Shown: positions 9,480-31,316 of the stretch, piece after piece
Layout: the number at the start of each line of letters is the position of its first letter
Position numbering within the stretch: the stretch's first letter is position 1
Source: a virus
Taxonomy: Duplodnaviria; Heunggongvirae; Uroviricota; Caudoviricetes
IMG/VR virus record: IMGVR_UViG_3300014886_000120
Reading direction: 5' to 3' (one strand)
DNA: 33,706 bases
Translations under genes and position numbers: made by a program
The notes under the pieces: generated by a model
What the model was told of the DNA's origin: nothing
Seen by the model: only the letters and a program-made list of their open reading frames with translations
The model's database searches: none

Positions 9480-11600
9480 TCATAGTCTTCCTCCTGTTCT
9501 ACTCCTTATAGAACGCATCATTTCTCTCCTTATAGTCTTAGCTGTCGTTTCTATGTCTCCCTCTTCTCTAATGTACCATGGCCCATTGATCACTATGTTG
9601 AATGATGGACTGGCTGACACAGCTCTCTCTAGATGAGGAGCTATCTCTACGGGAGGAGGACTAATCCTAACTGTGTGTCTTAAGTCCCGGAGCTGTTCTC
9701 CAGTAAATGGTTCTCCAACCTGTTTAATCCTCTGTACTATGTCTATCTCCTTAGCACTTGGCATCTCCTTTAATTCGTCAGCTAGACTGGATGCTGAATC
9801 TCTGGTAACTTCAAGAGAGTCAACTAAGGAATGTCCAGTAAGCTCTTCCTCTAGTTCTTTAGCTTGTCTTTTCATAGCTGTCATTTGCTGGGACACCATT
9901 AGCTGGGTCATAGCAAATGAAGCTAGGATGCCTATTCCAAAGGTGAGAACTCCTATAAGGAACTGGGTGGCTGTAGCTGCAAGGAGTGATGCAGCTGCAT
10001 GTGCATTGGCAGCTCCAGCAGCTGTATAATGAGCCAGAGCCTTCTGGTAAATCCATCCAGTTATTGTTTTCAACAAAGGTATCTCCATCATTGTAGTAGC
10101 CAGGTTCATTTTGTCAGCTATGTCTGACATAATCCTGGCATGTGTCTTAGTGGTTATGGCAGCTGTCTCTTCACGGTCTATAGCTATTTTTGAAGCCTGG
10201 ACTCCCATAGCTCGAGCCTGAGCTTCAGTTTGCCTATCTATCGAAGATGCCTCAGCAAAATTAGCTGCAACCTTAAGTAGCTGGGCTGAAACAGCTTCTT
10301 GGGTCGAAGCTACGGTCAGCTTCTGAGCTAGGTTCATTTTTACCATGAAGTCAGTTATAGCTTGACCAGTCCTCAGCATGCTTGGCATCATTCCAAATAC
10401 TAGCATTGCCCATGCATACTGCTGCTGCAATAGTGAGTTCCTTACACTCTGGAGTCTCTCCTGTAGAGCCATCTCAGCTTCCCTCAGACGTATGGTAGCA
10501 TCTATGGCCTCCTTGCTTCCCCTACCGTACTCAAAGATGGTCTCTTGCAGATCTTCTTGAGCTTCCCTTATCCTCATATGAGCTCTAGCCAGCAAGTATG
10601 CTCCTCTTTGTGCCTGTATTTGCCTAGCCTGGAGTCTGGCTAGCGACATGCTAGTAAACATCATACCCAGTCCAGTCCAGAAAATCTCTCTGGTAAATAC
10701 TCTTACTGCCTGTCCAGTAGGTCCCAGTAAAGCATAGAATCTCCTTTGAACCTCAGCCATTTCTCTTAGTCGGGTAGTAACTACTCTGGATGAGACACTT
10801 AAGTCTGTCAATAGAACGTTAGCATACTCTTGAGCTGCCCTTGTAGCTTCAGCCTGGCTTACACCTTGGTCTATAAGGTCTTGTCTATACTGTATTAGGA
10901 TTGGATGTGAAGAAGCTAAGATCTTAGCTAGCTGTTGCTGTACATCTGCCTCCATGTAGACATAATTTGTCATTTGCTTGGTAATCTCAGAAGCTGTCTC
11001 GGTAGCTAGTGCTACCCTATACAGTCCTCTGGAAGACTTACCTAAGAAACCAAGTAAGGCTCTAGACAACATCTCTTCCTGGGAAAGCTTTATCTCCTTA
11101 GCTTCCTCTGCAAGCTCTTTACCACTGTCTACCACTTCTTCAAACCTTAGACCTAGTTGAGCTGCCATAGCAGCTGAGTATTTCTCGAGCTGAGCTAATC
11201 TCAGCAATAACGGTAAGTTCTGCCCTATTTCATACCTTAGTTCCGATCTTATTTCTCTGGCTTCCTTTGTAGCTTGAGTAGCCATTATCAACCTGTCTAC
11301 TAGGATTCTGGTTGAATAGCTGAGTCTGTCTACTGCTCTGGCCTCTGCATCAGCTACTTCAACAGCTCCTTTCTGTTCATCTGTACGTTCCCTTATCTGG
11401 GCCTTAAGAGTCTTTTCTTTTTCTATAGCTTCATCTACTACTTCTCTACCTACTATGGTGTCTCCAATCTGGATTATCCTTCCTCTTGGTGGAGCCTCCA
11501 TGGCCTTCTTTAGGGTATTTAGCTTTTCCACTGCTTGATCAAGCTTCTGTAGTGCTCCCTCATCTACCAGACTTAGCTTGATTACTATAGGTACACTCAT
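9480..11600 (-). CDS. Tape measure protein (706 aa)
   Basis: Ala/Gln/Glu/Arg-rich helical sequence with a few hydrophobic segments; follows the frameshifted chaperone; C-terminal FNIVING motif typical of TMP ends. Confidence 0.85.
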   Translation of the reverse strand: MSVPIVIKLSLVDEGALQKLDQAVEKLNTLKKAMEAPPRGRIIQIGDTIVGREVVDEAIEKEKTLKAQIRERTDEQKGAVEVADAEARAVDRLSYSTRILVDRLIMATQATKEAREIRSELRYEIGQNLPLLLRLAQLEKYSAAMAAQLGLRFEEVVDSGKELAEEAKEIKLSQEEMLSRALLGFLGKSSRGLYRVALATETASEITKQMTNYVYMEADVQQQLAKILASSHPILIQYRQDLIDQGVSQAEATRAAQEYANVLLTDLSVSSRVVTTRLREMAEVQRRFYALLGPTGQAVRVFTREIFWTGLGMMFTSMSLARLQARQIQAQRGAYLLARAHMRIREAQEDLQETIFEYGRGSKEAIDATIRLREAEMALQERLQSVRNSLLQQQYAWAMLVFGMMPSMLRTGQAITDFMVKMNLAQKLTVASTQEAVSAQLLKVAANFAEASSIDRQTEAQARAMGVQASKIAIDREETAAITTKTHARIMSDIADKMNLATTMMEIPLLKTITGWIYQKALAHYTAAGAANAHAAASLLAATATQFLIGVLTFGIGILASFAMTQLMVSQQMTAMKRQAKELEEELTGHSLVDSLEVTRDSASSLADELKEMPSAKEIDIVQRIKQVGEPFTGEQLRDLRHTVRISPPPVEIAPHLERAVSASPSFNIVINGPWYIREEGDIETTAKTIRREMMRSIRSRTGGRL

Positions 11601-12210: not shown

Positions 12211-13173
12211 CTAATAGGCTAGAGCATTGAGTGAGCTTGAAGACACTTCCACTATCTGGATGGCATTAGCTGAAGAACTTGACCTAGCTGTGAATGGAAG
12301 CTCTATCTCTATAGGTTCAAGCCCAGATATCTCGTCAGGTAGCTCACCAAAGGTAACATTGTTCAGAGTGATAGTTATAGTGGAACCAGTCTTAGCCAAT
12401 GTTATCTGTATAGTATTGTCTTGTCTTCCCTTAACTGTACTAGCTATGGTATTGAACTGTCCCCTCATAGTGATTCTACCTTCAACTTCTAAGGCTCCTT
12501 CTCTCAGTTCCACCGGATAGTATGTACCAGCTCCAGTTGAATACATAGCCTCAAGGTTATTGTTAGTTGACACCACTATTCTTCCTACCAGTGTACATGG
12601 TATCGTACCACTGGAGTTAGTTATCTGGAGAGATGAATGATGGAATGCAAAGGCTTCCTGGCTAAAGTCTATACTAGGCTTAGGTAGGTTTCCAGTAACA
12701 GGTAGCACTGCCATATTCTTACCAGCAAAGTTTAGCTCTAGTCTCACATCTCCAGTATCCTCTATGGTTAGCTCAGCTGTATCAACCTTCATTCCGTAGT
12801 ATTCCAAGCTAACAGTGTTCCCATTCTCATCTGGAGCTAAGCCTCTGTAGATGGTCATTGATGGAACCTTTGAAGCTACTGCATAAGTAGATTCATATGG
12901 GGAAGTAGTACTGGCTGTAGAGACGGTACCAAGAATGTACTCAAATATTTTAGCTGATACAAGTTCCTGAACCCATCTTCCTACTACTCCTTCCTCTAAC
13001 CATACAACCTTCCTGAAGTCTCTGGAGCCTCCTATTACATCTTCTTCAGACTTGTTCTCAGTGGTAGTAGCTGACCATTCCAGCAAGTAGTTTGGGAAAG
13101 TATCTGGAGTGATAGATTGACCCCATACGTTCTCTTTCTTGAAGAGTATCCATCTATCCTGATAATATGACAT
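12211..13173 (-). CDS. Major tail (tube) protein, 320 aa
   Basis: First gene of the tail operon; GGAGGT RBS; motifs KEN.WG, PSMTIYRG, Y.GMKVD.AEL, L.LNFAG, NNNLE, G.LEVEGRIT, IELPFTA typical of siphovirus tube proteins. Confidence 0.85.
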   Translation of the reverse strand: MSYYQDRWILFKKENVWGQSITPDTFPNYLLEWSATTTENKSEEDVIGGSRDFRKVVWLEEGVVGRWVQELVSAKIFEYILGTVSTASTTSPYESTYAVASKVPSMTIYRGLAPDENGNTVSLEYYGMKVDTAELTIEDTGDVRLELNFAGKNMAVLPVTGNLPKPSIDFSQEAFAFHHSSLQITNSSGTIPCTLVGRIVVSTNNNLEAMYSTGAGTYYPVELREGALEVEGRITMRGQFNTIASTVKGRQDNTIQITLAKTGSTITITLNNVTFGELPDEISGLEPIEIELPFTARSSSSANAIQIVEVSSSSLNALAY

Positions 13174-24562: not shown

Positions 24563-24937
24563 ATGAGTAAAGATACGGTTAGATGGAAAGATCCACATAC
24601 TGGCAAAGTCTATTACAGGAAAGGAAAGTGTAATCACTGTGGAGGATGTTGTACCACATTTTGTCCTCATCTTCGTATAGTAGCTCTTAGGGACATAAAG
24701 AAAGGAGAGAGCTTTAAGGGAGTAGGTGACAGCTCAGGGAATATCATCATGTTATGTGACATATTTGACAAAGATATAACTGTGAATACTGGATGTGTAA
24801 GAGGATGTAGCTTAGAGGTAAGGAAGAGCTTCCCCAAGACTCCCCTGGTTACTCCAGAATGTTGTTCGTTTTACTGGGTTGATGAAGAGGGTAAGAAATG
24901 GGTAAGAAAAGACTACTCTATGGGAGTCTTGGAGTAG
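24563..24937 (+). CDS. YkgJ/FliB-like Cys-cluster (CxxCGxCC) protein, putative Zn or Fe-S binding
   Basis: CNHCGGCC...CPHL...CDIF...C...C...FP...CC. Confidence 0.7.
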   Translation: MSKDTVRWKDPHTGKVYYRKGKCNHCGGCCTTFCPHLRIVALRDIKKGESFKGVGDSSGNIIMLCDIFDKDITVNTGCVRGCSLEVRKSFPKTPLVTPECCSFYWVDEEGKKWVRKDYSMGVLE

Positions 24938-27900
24938 ATCCAACTTACTACCTGAGTAATTCTGGTACTGGATATTCTAGTCTATGGAAGTTAGTAGAGA
25001 CAGCTCCTAGTAGTGCAGATGATACATCTTATGTAACTTTTCCTAAGGATCAAACCGGATATATGAAGGTAATCCCAGGAACTGAAAACACTACTATAAC
25101 ATCAGACTTACCAGCTACTTTTGATCAGTATGGATGGAGAACTGACTCTACCCTTAATGGTACTTTCCAGTCTGGTAACTGGACTTTTTATGTTACTATT
25201 ATAACAGGCAAGTATGTTACTGGAAACGTTACTGTATATGCTAGATTATGGAAGTCATCCAATGCTGATGGTTCTGGAGCTACTGCTCTTACTTCATGGT
25301 TGACTATAGCAACCGTCAGCTCTCCAGCAGCCAGTACAACTTATAATCTAAGTGGGACTGCCTCCATAGGAGAACTGAGCTTTTCTAATGAATATCTGTT
25401 TGTTGAATATGCCCTAGGTACCACCAGTGCTTGTGGAAGTGCTGTGGGATGTGAAGTAACTTTCAGATGTAATGAAGGTTCAAACCAGAGAATAGACACA
25501 GCAGCTTTCCAGGCTATTGAGATAGTTTCAAGATTATTAGGGTTATTATATAAAGTAATCTCATACCAGAAGATTTCCAAGCTTCTAAGCTTGATATTTA
25601 GTATCTTAGCAGCTGTTTCCGTAATCTCTTCATTCTCAGACAACCTGGACAAGTTTATACTCACCCTTCAGAAGGTGGGGAAAGCATTAGTTGCAGCATG
25701 TAGGGACAAGAAGCTAACGTTCAGAAATGTTGGATCATTCAAGCTAACCAATTGGCAGTATAGGAAGAGTCATGTGGTTAATTCAGCTTCTGGAGCTGGT
25801 ACTGGATACAAAGTTGCCGTTACAACTTTCTATTCTTCTGGAACTGACAATGGAGGTACAGTTTACCTCGATGGAAAGTGCAACAGTGACTTTTCAGATA
25901 TTAGGTTTACAAAAGCTGATGGGTTTACTCAGCTTAACTACTGGATAGAAGATAAACAAGACAGTGACTATGCCAAGTTCTGGGTAAAAATAGACGATGA
26001 TCTTAGTACTTCTCCTGCTACTATTTACATGTATTATGGCAACCCAGATGTACCAGGAGATTTGAGTAATCCATATAACATCTTTGAGTTCTTTGATGAC
26101 TTTGATGGAGAAAGCCTAGATACATCTATCTGGCAATATGAGCTCCATAGGTTCTCAGTGTCCAATTCTATCCTTAAGGGTACATTTGGATATCATCAAA
26201 TAAGAACTAAAGATACATTTGGTGATGTGGAAGTAAGAGTAAAATGGAGATTTACCTCTGGCGGAAGAGGACATATTGGCTTTAGACAAACTGCAGATGT
26301 ATATACTAGTCCAAGAAGACATAAAGGATATCATGTTAGCTTCTATAAGCCTGAGGATAATACTAAGTTAAGAGTATGGCCTGGTCAAGCTCAAGCACCA
26401 ACTGATCAGACTGGAACTTTTCCATCTACTGCTAACACTTGGTATATTGGGTACATTAGGGGATATGGAAGTACCATCTCAACACAGATAGCTCCTGGAG
26501 CTGATTATCTGTCAACTATAGATTCAACTATGTTATCCGGAGAGGTAGGTTTAGGAGTTGATGCTTTTGCTGATGAGCTGAGTGATTATGTGGAGTATGA
26601 CTGGATAGCTATTAGGAAATATGTGGAACCTGAACCTTCACATAGCACATGGGGAACAGAAGAGGAGAGAACTGGAATCTTCTATTCTGGCTCACAAATG
26701 GCCAGTCGATTCTCTGCTATTCTGTATGGTACCGGAGGAATAGTGAAGAGATATATGGTTTTGATTTATTCTGTTCTTCTTGGTGTTACGTATGCATCTA
26801 AGCTTTTAGCTGTCAAGTTTAGCTCCATATCTAGAAAGTTCAAGATGTGTGTCTCTAGGTTCTCTATCCATAATTTAACAAGCAAGGCTGGTGCACTTCA
26901 GTACAAGTTGTATAACCTAAGAGCTAGAGATGTTGTTTCTCTCCACTCTTTAAAGAAACTTGCATTTAGGAACTCAGTAGCTTTACACAATCTCTTAGCC
27001 ATTAAATATAGGTACCTTGACATGGCTCATAAGATAAGGACTTTATCTGGAAGACTTTTATCTTTTCTCCATAGCCTTTTCAGCTTTAGGTTCAGAGAGC
27101 TCAGTCTTTTATACCGGATACAAGCTCCTTTCCAGGCTGTATCTAAACAAATTACACTCTTGTACTTCCTCTTTAAGAAACAATTTAGAACCTCATCATT
27201 GGCTTATTCTATTAGAGCTTTAGCTTTCAAATCATTCTCACTGTTATATACCACTCGTTCTATTTTACACAGAGCCATCAGCCTCTTGGTTAATATCAGA
27301 AGTCTAACACTTTTAGCTTTCCATTTCAAGTACGTCTTAAGAGTGGCAATACTCCGAGCTGTCTCAATTGTATATTCAATAGAGAGGATCCAATCCCTAA
27401 CTTTAGGAATAAGGTATTCCATTCTTAATATAATATCCAGACTTTCAGCTCTAAAGTTTTCACTGTTTAAGCTAGCTGGGAAACCTCTATCTTTGGTCTT
27501 CAGCTTATCCAATCTTGTTTGGAAGCTATCAACCATCAGATATTTGCTTTCTGGCCTAGTACATAGAACATCTGGTTTGAGGTATTCTATTCACACTCTT
27601 GTTTCCAGGTTTTCAGTAGTCTCATATATACTTAATAGGTTAACATCAAGAGTTGCAATACTCAAGTTTAGTCTATCCTCTATCAGCTCAAAGATACTCT
27701 CTATTGTTTATTCAATAGCTCTAGCTTATCAGACAGTCTTTAGAACTATGAGCTTTCTCTACTCTATACTGAGAACTACCTTTAGAAGGTTCAGCTCAAG
27801 GTATGCCCTACTTAGTATAGTATCTAGAAACATTGTCTTACCATATGATTTGAAGTCTCTAGCTTCAAGAACTATATCTCTCGGATATAGTATTCTAAGG

Positions 27901-30900
27901 TATGTCTATACCAGCCTTGTCATAGTCTTCAGTGTACTCGAATATAAACTTAGAAAGTTAGTAATAGTATATTCGGGATATGTACTGAGACTCAAAGATA
28001 TACAGCTAAAGTATAATTTGAAAAGCCTAGCTTCAGCTCTAGTCTCCATCTTATACTCATCTTATTCATCGATATGGAAGACTGTTGGGTTAATCTATAG
28101 ATTGTTCCAGACCAGAACTAGACTATTTGGGCTAAGCTATAACATTAAGGGATTGGTATCCAGTATCACCCAGATTGTCTACAGCATTATTTCCATATCT
28201 GCAAGGTATCTAAAGATACTATACAGTGTAGCATATCCATTCCAGACGGTCTATAGGACACTTTATTACTTATACAGTATACTGGCTTTTAAAAGCAGGA
28301 TTCTACACTTCAAGTTTACAGTGTTTAGGACAGCCTATTCTGAGACAAGCTTGAAGTTCAGATTACTGGGATTGAGAGCTAAGACCATAGGAGTAGGATA
28401 CTCTATCAGGGAGCTGATTAGCAAGATAACAGCTTTTACCTTCAATGTACTATCTATAGTCGAGAGGTATCTCTACTCTGCCTATTCACTTCTCAATCTT
28501 GTTCCAAAGCTTATAGCCTTAAGATACCTTCTAACCATAATAGCTCTTAGAAGCTTGTCCCTGTCCTATGCTGTTAGAAGCCTTGCTAGTAAGATATCAT
28601 CAATGCTTTATTCTGTACTTCAGCTCAGACTGAAAGCTATAGGCTTAGTATATGATGTTTCTGGTCTGGCTTACAGAGCTTTCTCAGTTGTCTACGGAGT
28701 CTTATCTCAGATATACAAGAGCATAGTGTACTTTTATACCCTGAGAAACCTGGTCTTTAACAGTGCTAGCTTAGTCTATTCTGGTATTGGTAGAGCTCTA
28801 AGGAAGCTTGGATTTAGGTACTTTATCCTTGGGGCTATAGCATACAAGGTTCTCATCTCTGTCTATAACCTGCTTAGCTTTACCCTAAGGAACATCTACA
28901 TCAGGTTCACCATAAAGAACTTGGTAGAGAAGAGTACCAGCTTCATTTATAGCCTAAGTTCACTGGTAAGCAGAGCTTTAGTGTCTCTCCATTCAACAAT
29001 TCAGTATCTTTGGAAGTCAATCCAGCTAGTCTATTCTGTTAAAAGCTTGGTATCACAGTCCATATCCTCAATCTATTCAGTTCTAATACTCAGAGCTAAA
29101 GCCTTGATGGCTAGATGGAACATTAAGACTTTAATCTATAGACAGGCAACAGTATTATTCAGCCTCATAGCTAAGCTTTACAGGCCTGTTAGCTTGACGT
29201 ATACTTTGCTCAATCTTGTATCCAGGCAAATATCTTCTGTCTATGCCGTTATTTCCAGAATATTCAGAAGGCTATCCATTGTCTACCAAGTACTAGGTCC
29301 ATCTGTCTATAAGACTTTGATGCTTGTATACTCAGCTCTGGTACTTGTAAAGAAGGAGGTAAATGTTAAGTATGTAGTAAGGAATCTGGCTACCAAGCTT
29401 TGGTCTTTACTTTATAATGTAAGAACTCTATCCCTTAGGCTGCTAACCATAAGACATTCTCTTCTATCTATAATGACCAAGCTTCTACATGCTTATTATT
29501 CTCTCAACATCATGGTATCCAGAACCTTTATATCAATATACAATGTTTTAAACTCCACATTCAAGAAGATGTCTATTCTCTATGCCTTACTAGCCTATAT
29601 TGCTGGATCTATATCTCTCAGATATAGTTCATTTGTGACACTATTAAGGACTCTGTCTATAGTACACCAAGTTAGACTGATAGCTCTTAGAGCTATTGGA
29701 GTAATTTACAGCTTAGCTGCAAGAACCTTCAGAGCTCTGGACATAAGGTATAAAGTAGGATGGTTCATAGAGAAGACTCTGGGCATTATTTACAATCTTG
29801 GAGGGATTATTTATAGCTCTATATCTATGGTGTATTCTATCCTTGTTCCAATAGGTAAGCTACTAAGCCTGGTTCACAATGTTTTGTCTTCTGTATACAG
29901 AGCTCTATCCAAGACATACTCTATAGTATCTATATCTCTCAGATATACTTCCATGTTCTATACAGTTCTGGTCTATTCACTAAGGAGTCTATGGATAAGC
30001 TTCAGCATAAGGTCTCTACAGAGTAAGCTTATGGTTTCTATGTATTCTATCCTTAACACTTTATCCAGGAGTCTTAGAGTAGTATTCAGTATATTAACAA
30101 TAGCATTCAAGACTTCAGTTCTAAAGTTCAATGTTAACGTTCTGGTCTATTTAGTCACAACACTGGCACATTCAATAAAGGCCTTGGTAGCCAGAACAGC
30201 CAGCATAGCTTACACAGTCATTGAAAGAATAGGCAAATCATTTTCACTACTCTACAGAGTATACATAATCACATCTATCTACAAGCTTTTAACGCTGGGG
30301 TATAGAGTGTTGAATCTGGCATTTAGTACGTTCAGCTTGAAGTATGTCCTTTATACCTTAAGAATAAGACTTGTATCCATACTTTATGGCACTATAGCAA
30401 GAACCAGAACTTTCCTAAGGACCTATTATGGGCTCTTGAACATTAAGCTCGTAACTATATCTCTCAGATATAGAATCAAGAACATTGGATTAAGGACAAT
30501 GGATATTGTATATAGTTTAGTCCATATAGCAAGCTTGACCATGTCTGTCATGTACAGCACCAGAGTGCTACTTTACAAAGTTACAAGGATAAAGTATACA
30601 GTAAGGCACCTGGCTCAGAGGTCAATGACAGCTCTTTATGATATAGGAGGAAGAATAAGTGCTGTCCTATCAATTGTTTATACTGTCCTTATTCTACGTC
30701 CAAGAACTATGCCTATCAGGTATACTGTCAGGAACCTAGCTGTGCTTTTCACCAGCATTCTCTACAAAATAAGGAGCTCTATAGGAAAAACACTATGGAT
30801 CAGACACATGATAGCTACTTCGTTTGTGAGAGCTAAGCTTGTCTTTGGCTACTCTTATCAGGTGATAATGGAGATATCCATAGTCTTACAGCTGTTTGCT

Positions 30901-30999
30901 AGCAAGCTTACTGTGTTCCTCAACCTATCTAAGATATCTTTATCTTTAGAGAAAGCTAAACAATACATAAAGACAAAGGTAAAGAGGAAGGAGGTATAA
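24898..30999 (+). CDS. Giant 2033-aa putative virion fibre/spike: N-terminal beta domain, DUF2341, lectin-like domain, ~1400-aa 14-residue repeat shaft
   Basis: DUF2341-type WQYRK...DFSDIRFT...LNYWIE...FWVKI...TIYMYYGNP; FFDDF...DWIAIRKYVEPEP; GAGGGT RBS. Confidence 0.75.
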   Translation: MGKKRLLYGSLGVDPTYYLSNSGTGYSSLWKLVETAPSSADDTSYVTFPKDQTGYMKVIPGTENTTITSDLPATFDQYGWRTDSTLNGTFQSGNWTFYVTIITGKYVTGNVTVYARLWKSSNADGSGATALTSWLTIATVSSPAASTTYNLSGTASIGELSFSNEYLFVEYALGTTSACGSAVGCEVTFRCNEGSNQRIDTAAFQAIEIVSRLLGLLYKVISYQKISKLLSLIFSILAAVSVISSFSDNLDKFILTLQKVGKALVAACRDKKLTFRNVGSFKLTNWQYRKSHVVNSASGAGTGYKVAVTTFYSSGTDNGGTVYLDGKCNSDFSDIRFTKADGFTQLNYWIEDKQDSDYAKFWVKIDDDLSTSPATIYMYYGNPDVPGDLSNPYNIFEFFDDFDGESLDTSIWQYELHRFSVSNSILKGTFGYHQIRTKDTFGDVEVRVKWRFTSGGRGHIGFRQTADVYTSPRRHKGYHVSFYKPEDNTKLRVWPGQAQAPTDQTGTFPSTANTWYIGYIRGYGSTISTQIAPGADYLSTIDSTMLSGEVGLGVDAFADELSDYVEYDWIAIRKYVEPEPSHSTWGTEEERTGIFYSGSQMASRFSAILYGTGGIVKRYMVLIYSVLLGVTYASKLLAVKFSSISRKFKMCVSRFSIHNLTSKAGALQYKLYNLRARDVVSLHSLKKLAFRNSVALHNLLAIKYRYLDMAHKIRTLSGRLLSFLHSLFSFRFRELSLLYRIQAPFQAVSKQITLLYFLFKKQFRTSSLAYSIRALAFKSFSLLYTTRSILHRAISLLVNIRSLTLLAFHFKYVLRVAILRAVSIVYSIERIQSLTLGIRYSILNIISRLSALKFSLFKLAGKPLSLVFSLSNLVWKLSTIRYLLSGLVHRTSGLRYSIHTLVSRFSVVSYILNRLTSRVAILKFSLSSISSKILSIVYSIALAYQTVFRTMSFLYSILRTTFRRFSSRYALLSIVSRNIVLPYDLKSLASRTISLGYSILRYVYTSLVIVFSVLEYKLRKLVIVYSGYVLRLKDIQLKYNLKSLASALVSILYSSYSSIWKTVGLIYRLFQTRTRLFGLSYNIKGLVSSITQIVYSIISISARYLKILYSVAYPFQTVYRTLYYLYSILAFKSRILHFKFTVFRTAYSETSLKFRLLGLRAKTIGVGYSIRELISKITAFTFNVLSIVERYLYSAYSLLNLVPKLIALRYLLTIIALRSLSLSYAVRSLASKISSMLYSVLQLRLKAIGLVYDVSGLAYRAFSVVYGVLSQIYKSIVYFYTLRNLVFNSASLVYSGIGRALRKLGFRYFILGAIAYKVLISVYNLLSFTLRNIYIRFTIKNLVEKSTSFIYSLSSLVSRALVSLHSTIQYLWKSIQLVYSVKSLVSQSISSIYSVLILRAKALMARWNIKTLIYRQATVLFSLIAKLYRPVSLTYTLLNLVSRQISSVYAVISRIFRRLSIVYQVLGPSVYKTLMLVYSALVLVKKEVNVKYVVRNLATKLWSLLYNVRTLSLRLLTIRHSLLSIMTKLLHAYYSLNIMVSRTFISIYNVLNSTFKKMSILYALLAYIAGSISLRYSSFVTLLRTLSIVHQVRLIALRAIGVIYSLAARTFRALDIRYKVGWFIEKTLGIIYNLGGIIYSSISMVYSILVPIGKLLSLVHNVLSSVYRALSKTYSIVSISLRYTSMFYTVLVYSLRSLWISFSIRSLQSKLMVSMYSILNTLSRSLRVVFSILTIAFKTSVLKFNVNVLVYLVTTLAHSIKALVARTASIAYTVIERIGKSFSLLYRVYIITSIYKLLTLGYRVLNLAFSTFSLKYVLYTLRIRLVSILYGTIARTRTFLRTYYGLLNIKLVTISLRYRIKNIGLRTMDIVYSLVHIASLTMSVMYSTRVLLYKVTRIKYTVRHLAQRSMTALYDIGGRISAVLSIVYTVLILRPRTMPIRYTVRNLAVLFTSILYKIRSSIGKTLWIRHMIATSFVRAKLVFGYSYQVIMEISIVLQLFASKLTVFLNLSKISLSLEKAKQYIKTKVKRKEV
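26701..30880 (+). repeat. About 95-100 degenerate 14-codon protein repeats, consensus roughly (T/S)-h-S-h-x-Y-S-(I/V/L)-x-x-L-h-S-(R/K)
   Basis: For example TSGLRYSIHTLVSR / FSVVSYILNRLTSR / VAILKFSLSSISSK / TMSFLYSILRTTFR / NIVLPYDLKSLASR. Confidence 0.85.
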
Positions 31000-31001
31000 T
31001 A

Positions 31002-31316
31002 TTGACTGACCTACGTCTCAAGAAGAGTGAGAAGAAGTATATCCAGTTCATAATCAAAGACGAAGATGACAATAGGCTAGATCTTACTGGCTGTGAAGCT
31101 ACCCTTCAAATACAGAAGTATGGAGAATCTACTTTGAGAGTAAACTCTTCACTTAACATTACAGATGCTACTGAAGGAGAATGCCGATATTACTACCAGG
31201 GTAACCTTCCAGTAGGATATTATAAGGGAGAGATAGAAGTTACCACTGAAGCTGGACTAACCCTTATAACCAAGACTTTTACCCTGGAGGTAATAGCTGA
31301 TTTACCAGAGACATAA
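31002..31316 (+). CDS. BppU N-terminal-like (Ig-fold) anchor/adaptor protein
   Basis: IQF.I.DED...LDLTG..A......DATEG.C.Y......G.YKGEIEV pattern; GGAGGT RBS with TTG start; follows the giant fibre gene. Confidence 0.65.
   Translation: MTDLRLKKSEKKYIQFIIKDEDDNRLDLTGCEATLQIQKYGESTLRVNSSLNITDATEGECRYYYQGNLPVGYYKGEIEVTTEAGLTLITKTFTLEVIADLPET

Follow-up and report, generated by a model that had tools for sequence, protein, structure and literature searches.

A 97-unit array of 14-residue repeats in a giant viral protein: an unnamed repeat family and a candidate β-solenoid fibre shaft

Introduction

What structure is built by a viral protein in which a 14-residue unit recurs 97 times, and what might the virus use it for? 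The question is raised by the protein P0001, encoded by a giant gene in a 33,706-nucleotide stretch of DNA from a tailed virus (Duplodnaviria; Heunggongvirae; Uroviricota; Caudoviricetes; IMG/VR record IMGVR_UViG_3300014886_000120), hereafter the window; all coordinates given here are positions in this whole stretch. An original prediction, made from the letters of the DNA, had described about 100 copies of a strongly basic and hydrophobic repeat with a conserved Tyr and periodic longer units, and had proposed a new β-fibrous shaft, distinct from the 15-residue triple β-spiral, that could form a very long filament. On balance we lean towards the array being the β-solenoid shaft of a virion-associated fibre or adhesin, carried behind lectin-like N-terminal domains. 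Judged from its sequence, the window repeat belongs to a large family for which public resources offer no description, and it is an extreme case there in length and chemistry. That the window copy shares the β-helix fold predicted for a family member, that it is located on the virion and what it binds are inferred.

The 14-residue array

Autocorrelation, the check that the original prediction had proposed, reveals a dominant 14-residue period, well above chance: over residues 602-1995, the Tyr autocorrelation peaks at lags 14, 28, 42 and 56 (0.41, 0.37, 0.30 and 0.30), with maxima at these lags also for hydrophobic residues, for basic residues and for residue identity. Segmentation with a self-trained position matrix and dynamic programming divides residues 604-1977 into 97 units, close to the predicted number, with the consensus R/K-T-L-S-L-L-Y-S-[LIV]-L-S-L-V-S. 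Position 1 is R or K in 80 of the 97 units, position 7 (the conserved Tyr) is Y, F or H in 95, and position 9 is L, I or V in 86; information per position is highest at the odd positions 1, 3, 5, 7 and 9. The array is composed mainly of L (16.8 %), S (13.7 %), I (10 %), V (8.8 %), Y (8.1 %), R (8.0 %) and K (5.4 %), with little E (0.8 %) or D (0.6 %), 0.7 % Pro and 3 % Gly, the best Gly position being occupied by Gly in 10 of the 97 units. Its strongly basic character is likewise confirmed, with 185 K+R against 18 D+E, an isoelectric point (pI) of 10.8 and a net charge of ~+167 (~+1.7 per coil), and its grand average of hydropathy (GRAVY) is +0.63. There is also a weak 28-residue super-period, seen as K/R alternation at position 1 and as a switch between K/R and L at position 10.

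Compared in pairs, units are on average 37 % identical in DNA and 21 % identical in protein, in agreement with the earlier view that protein-level selection maintains the period while DNA identity has decayed. Across the 97 units, no unit lag shows raised identity, which indicates that the repeats are old and have undergone no visible recent block duplication; the suggestion of higher-order segment duplication is therefore not borne out. The longer units are recovered by the segmentation at the sites predicted earlier (Table 1), with gaps of 14, 12, 14, 11 and 23 units, evener than random (p ~0.017; p ~5e-5 once the in-phase LGGIIY unit at residue 1626 is added post hoc). Family-wide, longer units have no preferred spacing.

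Both GC skew and AT skew go negative over 27001-31000 despite the plus-strand gene, a reversal explained by codon content (Leu, Ser, Ile, Val, Tyr and Phe have T-rich codons) and not by a strand switch. The list of open reading frames (ORFs) holds no alternative open frame across the array region. A polytopic membrane protein was considered and rejected: membrane-spanning helices, the outcome that the original prediction had set against a fibre, find little room where only nine 19-residue windows exceed a Kyte-Doolittle value of 1.6 and charged residues recur every ~14 residues.

An unnamed viral repeat family

An exhaustive phmmer (HMMER) search with residues 602-1800 against 1.84 billion representatives, clustered at 50 % identity, finds 164 cluster representatives at E ≤ 1e-3 and 56 at E ≤ 1e-10, the best reaching 6e-60, in a setting where E-values between repeat arrays are inflated by unit scores adding up. 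In 146 of the 150 matches listed, lag 14, 28 or 42 gives the strongest self-identity. The family consensus from 4173 segmented units is K-[TS]-L-[TS]-L-x-[YW]-[ND]-[IV]-[RL]-[GNAQS]-[LR]-[VI]-[STG], with which the window array agrees at positions 1, 3, 5, 7, 8, 9, 12 and 13, and the hydrophobicity profiles of window and family correlate with r = 0.88. The shared pattern is a basic residue at position 1, Leu/Ile at 3 and 5, an aromatic residue at 7, Ser/Asn/Asp at 8 and Ile/Val/Leu at 9 and 13. Family members and the window protein also have a common architecture, in which a globular, often lectin-like N-terminal domain precedes the array, in viral structural gene clusters.

The chemistry of the units is far more variable than their pattern. 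Net charge spans about -2.4 to +2.5 per unit among members, and the window array ranks 4th of 149 for hydrophobicity, with an even-position hydrophobicity of +0.33 against a family median of -0.86; "basic and hydrophobic" thus describes the window copy and not the family. The same diversity is found among relatives that have N-terminal or DUF2341 domains in common with P0001. P0003 and P0005 share the N-terminal domain of P0001, and their arrays consist of 44 units of T-V-T-F-T-V-D-V-L-L-S-T-T-Y and 55 units of S-T-x-L-S-S-x-F-T-L-R-H-x-A, respectively; P0007, which shares N-terminal or DUF2341 domains with P0001, has 62 units of a basic N-K-I-...-Y-N-I type. These differing 14-mers indicate that selection holds the period and the pattern, not the chemistry.

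The family has escaped naming. A word-indexed homologue search with the array region gives zero matches, a sensitivity limit given that the exhaustive search found 164 representatives. Pfam has no model over the array, and PHROGs yields only weak matches to families of unknown function, without annotation covering the repeat. One of its entries, phrog_19577 "minor head protein", goes back to phiNIT1 orf378, a heptad-type protein of a Bacillus phage and probably no relative. Sequence searches of the PDB with the window array, with P0132 and with a profile of the family alignment return no relatives; the top profile match, a designed β-barrel (E 5e-4), is a resemblance of pattern only. In literature on 14-residue phage repeats, viral DUF2341 and β-solenoid tail fibres, no description of the family was found. 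The repeat is thus new in the sense of being unnamed, without a Pfam model or a solved structure; as a member of a large family it is not new in the sense of being singular.

Some members interleave arrays with globular parts. In P0088, the top match (2945 amino acids), β-propeller-blade-like globular segments break the arrays (residues ~1830-2040) in the style of beads on a rod, and in P0132 a LamG domain is similarly placed between arrays.

Evidence for the fold

Two AlphaFold2 runs were made on a nearly identical alignment of in-phase 196-residue segments, with different queries. With residues 663-858 of the family member P0120 as query (60-row alignment), the prediction is an all-β parallel β-helix with a predicted local distance difference test (pLDDT) of 86.1 and a predicted template modelling score (pTM) of 0.81; of the five models, three have a pLDDT above 80 and one more has 70.5. 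In this model every 14 residues comprise two strands, one of 3 residues at positions 2-4 and one of 7 residues at positions 7-13. P0120, with units of the form G-R-S-L-A-L-P-Y-S-I-R-A-T-A, matches the window array with E 4e-14. An ESM Atlas cluster, 95 % of it viral, resembles the P0120 model with a TM score of 0.89, and ESM Atlas feature searches give 0.82-0.87 to unnamed clusters. Foldseek comparison of the model with the PDB and BFVD produces nothing at E ≤ 1e-3; the weak rows are all β-solenoids.

Covariation in the family is of the kind found along strands. Mean-field direct coupling analysis (DCA) of 3297 adjacent-unit pairs (effective number of sequences, Meff, 2613) gives a mean local coupling of 0.77 at i+2 and 0.34 at i+1, compared with -0.04 at i+3 and -0.14 at i+4, with additional couplings 7-9', 9-7' and 13-7' between neighbouring units; a hydrophobic sub-group shows the same trend more weakly. 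The conserved hydrophobic positions are all odd-numbered, as expected of strands with one buried face. Pro has a fixed place in most units of some relatives (position 4 in P0088, position 6 in P0120) and occurs in 15-18 % of the units of P0005 and P0003. In the hydrophobicity profile of the family, the period-2 and period-3.5 harmonics are equally strong.

Proposed model

We propose that each 14-residue unit would form one coil of a narrow two-sheet parallel β-helix, with a short strand at positions 2-4 and a long strand at 7-13. The core would be filled by L3, L5, Y7, I/V9, the small residue at 11 and V13, and K/R1 would lie at the corner. β-Solenoids generally rise by ~4.8 Å per coil, and at this spacing the 97 coils would make a rod of ~47 nm, interrupted every 11-14 coils by a coil with one to three extra residues. 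The acidic globular N-terminal part (the 205-residue domain, DUF2341 and the concanavalin-A-like lectin fold) would anchor the fibre or bind a glycan. The very long filament of the original prediction would accordingly be retained as a long thin rod, modelled as a single-chain solenoid and not as a trimeric spiral.

The window copy is unusually hydrophobic at its outward positions (6, 10 and 12) and carries ~+1.7 charges per coil, and the rod probably packs laterally, with its own copies or against an acidic surface. A role as virion fibre or adhesin is indicated by the lectin-like N-terminal domains, by the location of the gene in the structural region of relatives, apart from the tape measure, and by arrays of this kind on virion proteins of cultured phages. 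The place of the gene in relatives suggests attachment at the head or neck. We give a slim chance to a more elaborate version, in which the unit is balanced between two folds and the rod either bundles laterally into a multi-stranded filament, as in ice-nucleation proteins and curli, or switches between a ~47 nm β-solenoid and a ~200 nm helical form; if true, the virus would have a head or neck filament that extends or assembles itself and serves to catch an archaeal host.

Alternative readings

Several observations weigh against a β-solenoid in the window copy, and most of them speak for a very long α-helical rod or coiled coil (~200 nm) built on double heptads, with a polar stripe at positions 1, 4, 8 and 11 and the +1 and +3 insertions as skips and stammers. 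With window residues 1472-1667 as the query, three of the five AlphaFold2 models are a single continuous helix (pLDDT 79); a period-3.5 harmonic dominates the hydrophobicity profile of the window array (11.4, against a weak 3.3 at period 2); the array is nearly without Pro or Gly; and most insertions are +3 or +1. Moreover, the cross-sheet contacts 3-11 and 5-9 of the AlphaFold2 model do not appear in the DCA, which has 7-13 and 13-7' instead, and the window alone is too small for covariation (N = 65 unit pairs). The inflated E-values between arrays leave the homology less secure than the numbers suggest, with some room for convergence on a 14-residue pattern, and the virion location of the window protein is presumed from the gene context of its relatives. 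We keep the helical rod as a serious rival but rate it clearly less likely than the β-solenoid. The helix model has a pTM of only 0.31, and two of the five models fall below pLDDT 30; with 10 of the 14 positions hydrophobic, a helix would lack a soluble face; positions 1, 4, 8 and 11 are polar, which speaks against the hydrophobic a/d seam of a coiled coil; conservation falls on odd-numbered positions throughout, and the family covariation lacks i+3 and i+4 coupling. P0088, the best HMMER match, has Pro in most units, the relatives by N-terminal domain carry Pro-bearing, Ser/Thr-rich 14-mers, and P0120 folds as a β-helix in AlphaFold2 with a pTM of 0.81. A three-copy complex prediction for residues 1472-1667 (score 0.00, partner fold uncertain) was counted for neither side. 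From the family evidence (the P0120 model, the i+2 covariation and the fixed Pro of relatives), the array is more likely β than helical, as the original prediction had it; since its own fragment folds as a helix in AlphaFold2, the β reading of the window copy rests on homology.

If the array is β, it could still be an interwoven trimer with a 14-residue repeat (a triple β-spiral or triple β-helix), as originally proposed. Its four alternating hydrophobics, small residue and one further hydrophobic resemble the shaft motif of adenovirus, a pattern reportedly described by van Raaij et al. in 1999; phage fibres are usually trimers, and the hydrophobic outward positions 10 and 12 hint at a subunit interface. 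We nonetheless rate this reading as distinctly improbable: the P0120 prediction is a self-contained single-chain solenoid, the array has no conserved Gly/Pro turn, and the PDB, Foldseek and VIA-align searches find no sequence or fold match to any triple β-spiral. The claim of distinctness from the 15-residue spiral holds up for the same lack of a turn and for the period of 14. The net charge of the array would also suit a protein packaged inside the virion, with its strongly basic rod binding or condensing the viral DNA, which we regard as very improbable given that charge is not conserved in the family, that the N-terminal DUF2341 and concanavalin-A-like domains are typical of exposed adhesins, and that the cultured examples are tail or neck proteins. 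Least credible is a tail tape measure protein, as which the great length, the repetitiveness and the periodic aromatics might be read: its expected place is taken by the gene at 9480-11600 on the minus strand and the giant gene lies on the other strand, relatives have a separate tape measure, and lectin-like N-terminal domains are foreign to tape measures. The chance of this we put close to nil.

Gene organisation

The start codon of the giant gene is backed by the N-termini of P0003 and P0005 in an alignment-free comparison. Its first 603 residues, with a pI of 5.4 and a GRAVY of -0.29, comprise an N-terminal domain without a Pfam family, an insert, and then DUF2341 (PF10102, E 5e-20) and a concanavalin-A-like domain (PF06439, E 6e-5, below the cut-off of that model). 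In the insert, the position matrix picks up a few further units of the 14-residue repeat (matches at residues 212 and 228), and the most hydrophobic 19-residue window of P0001 also lies there; P0007 and P0132 have comparable short arrays between globular domains.

At its other end the protein closes with a hydrophobic stretch and a Lys-rich terminus. The C-termini of P0003, P0005 and P0007 are alike, each having a ~20-residue hydrophobic stretch and then a Lys/Arg-rich tail, and this shared ending resembles a C-terminal anchor or capping helix. The start of the giant gene overlaps the upstream ORF for a 124-residue Cys-rich protein (24563-24937) by 40 nucleotides (24898-24937), which suggests translational coupling.

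Table 1. Features of the giant repeat gene and of selected neighbouring genes in the window
Feature	Coordinates	Strand	Basis or remark
Whole giant gene P0001, 2033 aa	24898..30999	+	ORF list and translation
N-terminal domain, ~205 aa	24898..25512	+	59-63 % identity to metagenomic P0002, P0003, P0005
Insert between N-terminal domain and DUF2341, ~80 aa	25513..25752	+	absent from P0003, P0005
DUF2341 (residues 331-413), then concanavalin-A-like domain (residues 401-527)	25888..26478	+	Pfam
Main array, 97 units of 14 residues, residues 604-1977	26707..30828	+	position matrix and dynamic programming
Longer unit, +3, residue 632	26791	+	segmentation
Longer unit, +3, residue 747, motif A-P-F-Q-A-V-S-K	27136 (27136..27144)	+	segmentation
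Longer unit, +3, residue 946	27733	+	segmentation
Longer unit, +3, residue 1117	28246	+	segmentation
Longer unit, +1, residue 1316	28843	+	segmentation
Longer unit, +1, residue 1471	29308	+	segmentation
Longer unit, +2, residue 1794	30277	+	segmentation
C-terminal 56 aa, hydrophobic stretch then Lys-rich end	30829..30996	+	translation
104-aa gene with BppU_N-like domain	31002..31316	+	directly 3' of giant gene
Phage_tube_2 tail tube gene	12211-13173	-	
706-aa Ala-rich protein, membrane-like segment	9480-11600	-	two genes downstream of tail tube, after 131-aa gene

Genome neighbourhood in the window and in relatives

In the window, the giant gene stands outside the tail module, on the opposite strand. 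The Ala-rich protein that follows the tail tube gene is likely the tape measure of the window virus, and a gene matching a tail-fibre PHROG lies further along the minus strand. On the plus strand, a Kelch propeller protein and a small Cys-rich protein are encoded upstream of the giant gene, and the BppU_N-like protein and then a large zinc-finger protein downstream. A 109-residue homologue of the BppU_N-like gene (28 % identity) also follows the giant gene of P0007 (locus L001), where the order is that of the window: small gene, giant gene, ~105-residue gene, large gene. The BppU_N-like protein is a possible adaptor, perhaps trimeric, for the fibre.

In other relatives the repeat gene lies close to head or tail genes. 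That of P0005 is situated between capsid-like genes on one side and five small genes, a tail tube gene and a 1169-residue tape-measure candidate on the other; that of P0093 is upstream of a PhageMin_Tail tape measure, and that of P0118 is near an SU10-type portal. The window contains archaeal markers (DUF2153, a B-129-type zinc finger and inteins), and its best named DUF2341 matches are from Thorarchaeota, which together fit an archaeal-type tailed virus.

In three relatives (L001:1-6474, L005:3090-5943 and the P0093 context), the giant repeat gene has viral glycosyltransferase genes just upstream of it, and the upstream region of L001 also has methyltransferase, radical-SAM and epimerase genes. 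Genes of these four kinds were not recognised in the window. Glycosylation of the rod is conceivable on its outer face, which is rich in Ser and Thr.

Implications

Reading one β-helix coil per 14 residues provides a first fold hypothesis for a large viral repeat family, carried by at least 164 clusters (50 % identity) in bacterial and archaeal viruses. It would allow fibre length to be read from repeat number, and the genes to be annotated as virion appendages. The window copy is among the longest (97 coils), the most hydrophobic and the most basic. Because the closest protein matches of the virus are from Thorarchaeota, the giant protein is a candidate host-attachment organelle in the very little-known viruses that infect Asgard-type archaea. 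The opposite AlphaFold results for P0120 and for the window fragment also recommend the array as a test case where a repeat is amphipathic as a helix and as a strand alike.

Comparison with known systems

The closest structural likeness is to the core β-helix of SufB and SufD (9h78_B, 5awf_A, 1vh4_A and 4dn7_B), a two-sheet parallel β-helix with ~14-15 residues per coil, like the P0120 model. VIA-align superposes the two with Z 14.2-15.2 and a root-mean-square deviation of 2.7-3.4 Å over 192-193 of the 196 residues, a likeness to the model of the relative P0120 and not to the window fragment. SufB and SufD differ in function (Fe-S cluster assembly), in having ~14 coils without a tandem sequence repeat, and in sequence, with 6-11 % identity. 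Further VIA-align matches of the P0120 model are CsgA (Z 12.2 and 10.8), the Lolium perenne ice-binding protein 3ult (Z 7.8) and many parallel β-helices.

Ice-nucleation proteins (16-residue coils), 3ult (14-15-residue coils) and curli CsgA stack dozens of short, near-identical coils in a narrow rod, as proposed here, and ice-nucleation proteins also assemble side by side. They differ in repeat length and motif, are non-viral and have no sequence relationship to the family. The triple β-spiral of the adenovirus fibre and reovirus sigma1 is a viral fibre shaft with a short pseudo-repeat and alternating hydrophobics; it differs in its period of 15, its conserved Gly/Pro turn and its obligate interwoven trimer.

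The window array itself has no match in 50,697 phage records; queries taken from the family did pick out similar arrays in cultured phages, among them Aeromonas phage BUCT551 and Vibrio phage KVP40 with its relatives. Gp47 of Aeromonas phage BUCT551 (L002:2479-6795), a "tail protein" in the J position, ends in ~18 near-identical C-terminal units of P-G-V-I-A-D-L-T-A-P-Y-G-L-R, in which two Pro and two Gly per unit rule out a helix. Gp15 of Vibrio phage KVP40 (L008:2314-3666), a neck/tail-completion protein of 451 amino acids, has ~14 C-terminal units with the motif L-x-I-D-W-N-T-R. Both arrays differ from that of the window in being short, acidic or neutral, and C-terminal on known tail or neck proteins. 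They share the Leu, aromatic and Val/Ile spacing of the family, and the extension of KVP40-like gp15 may form thin neck appendages.

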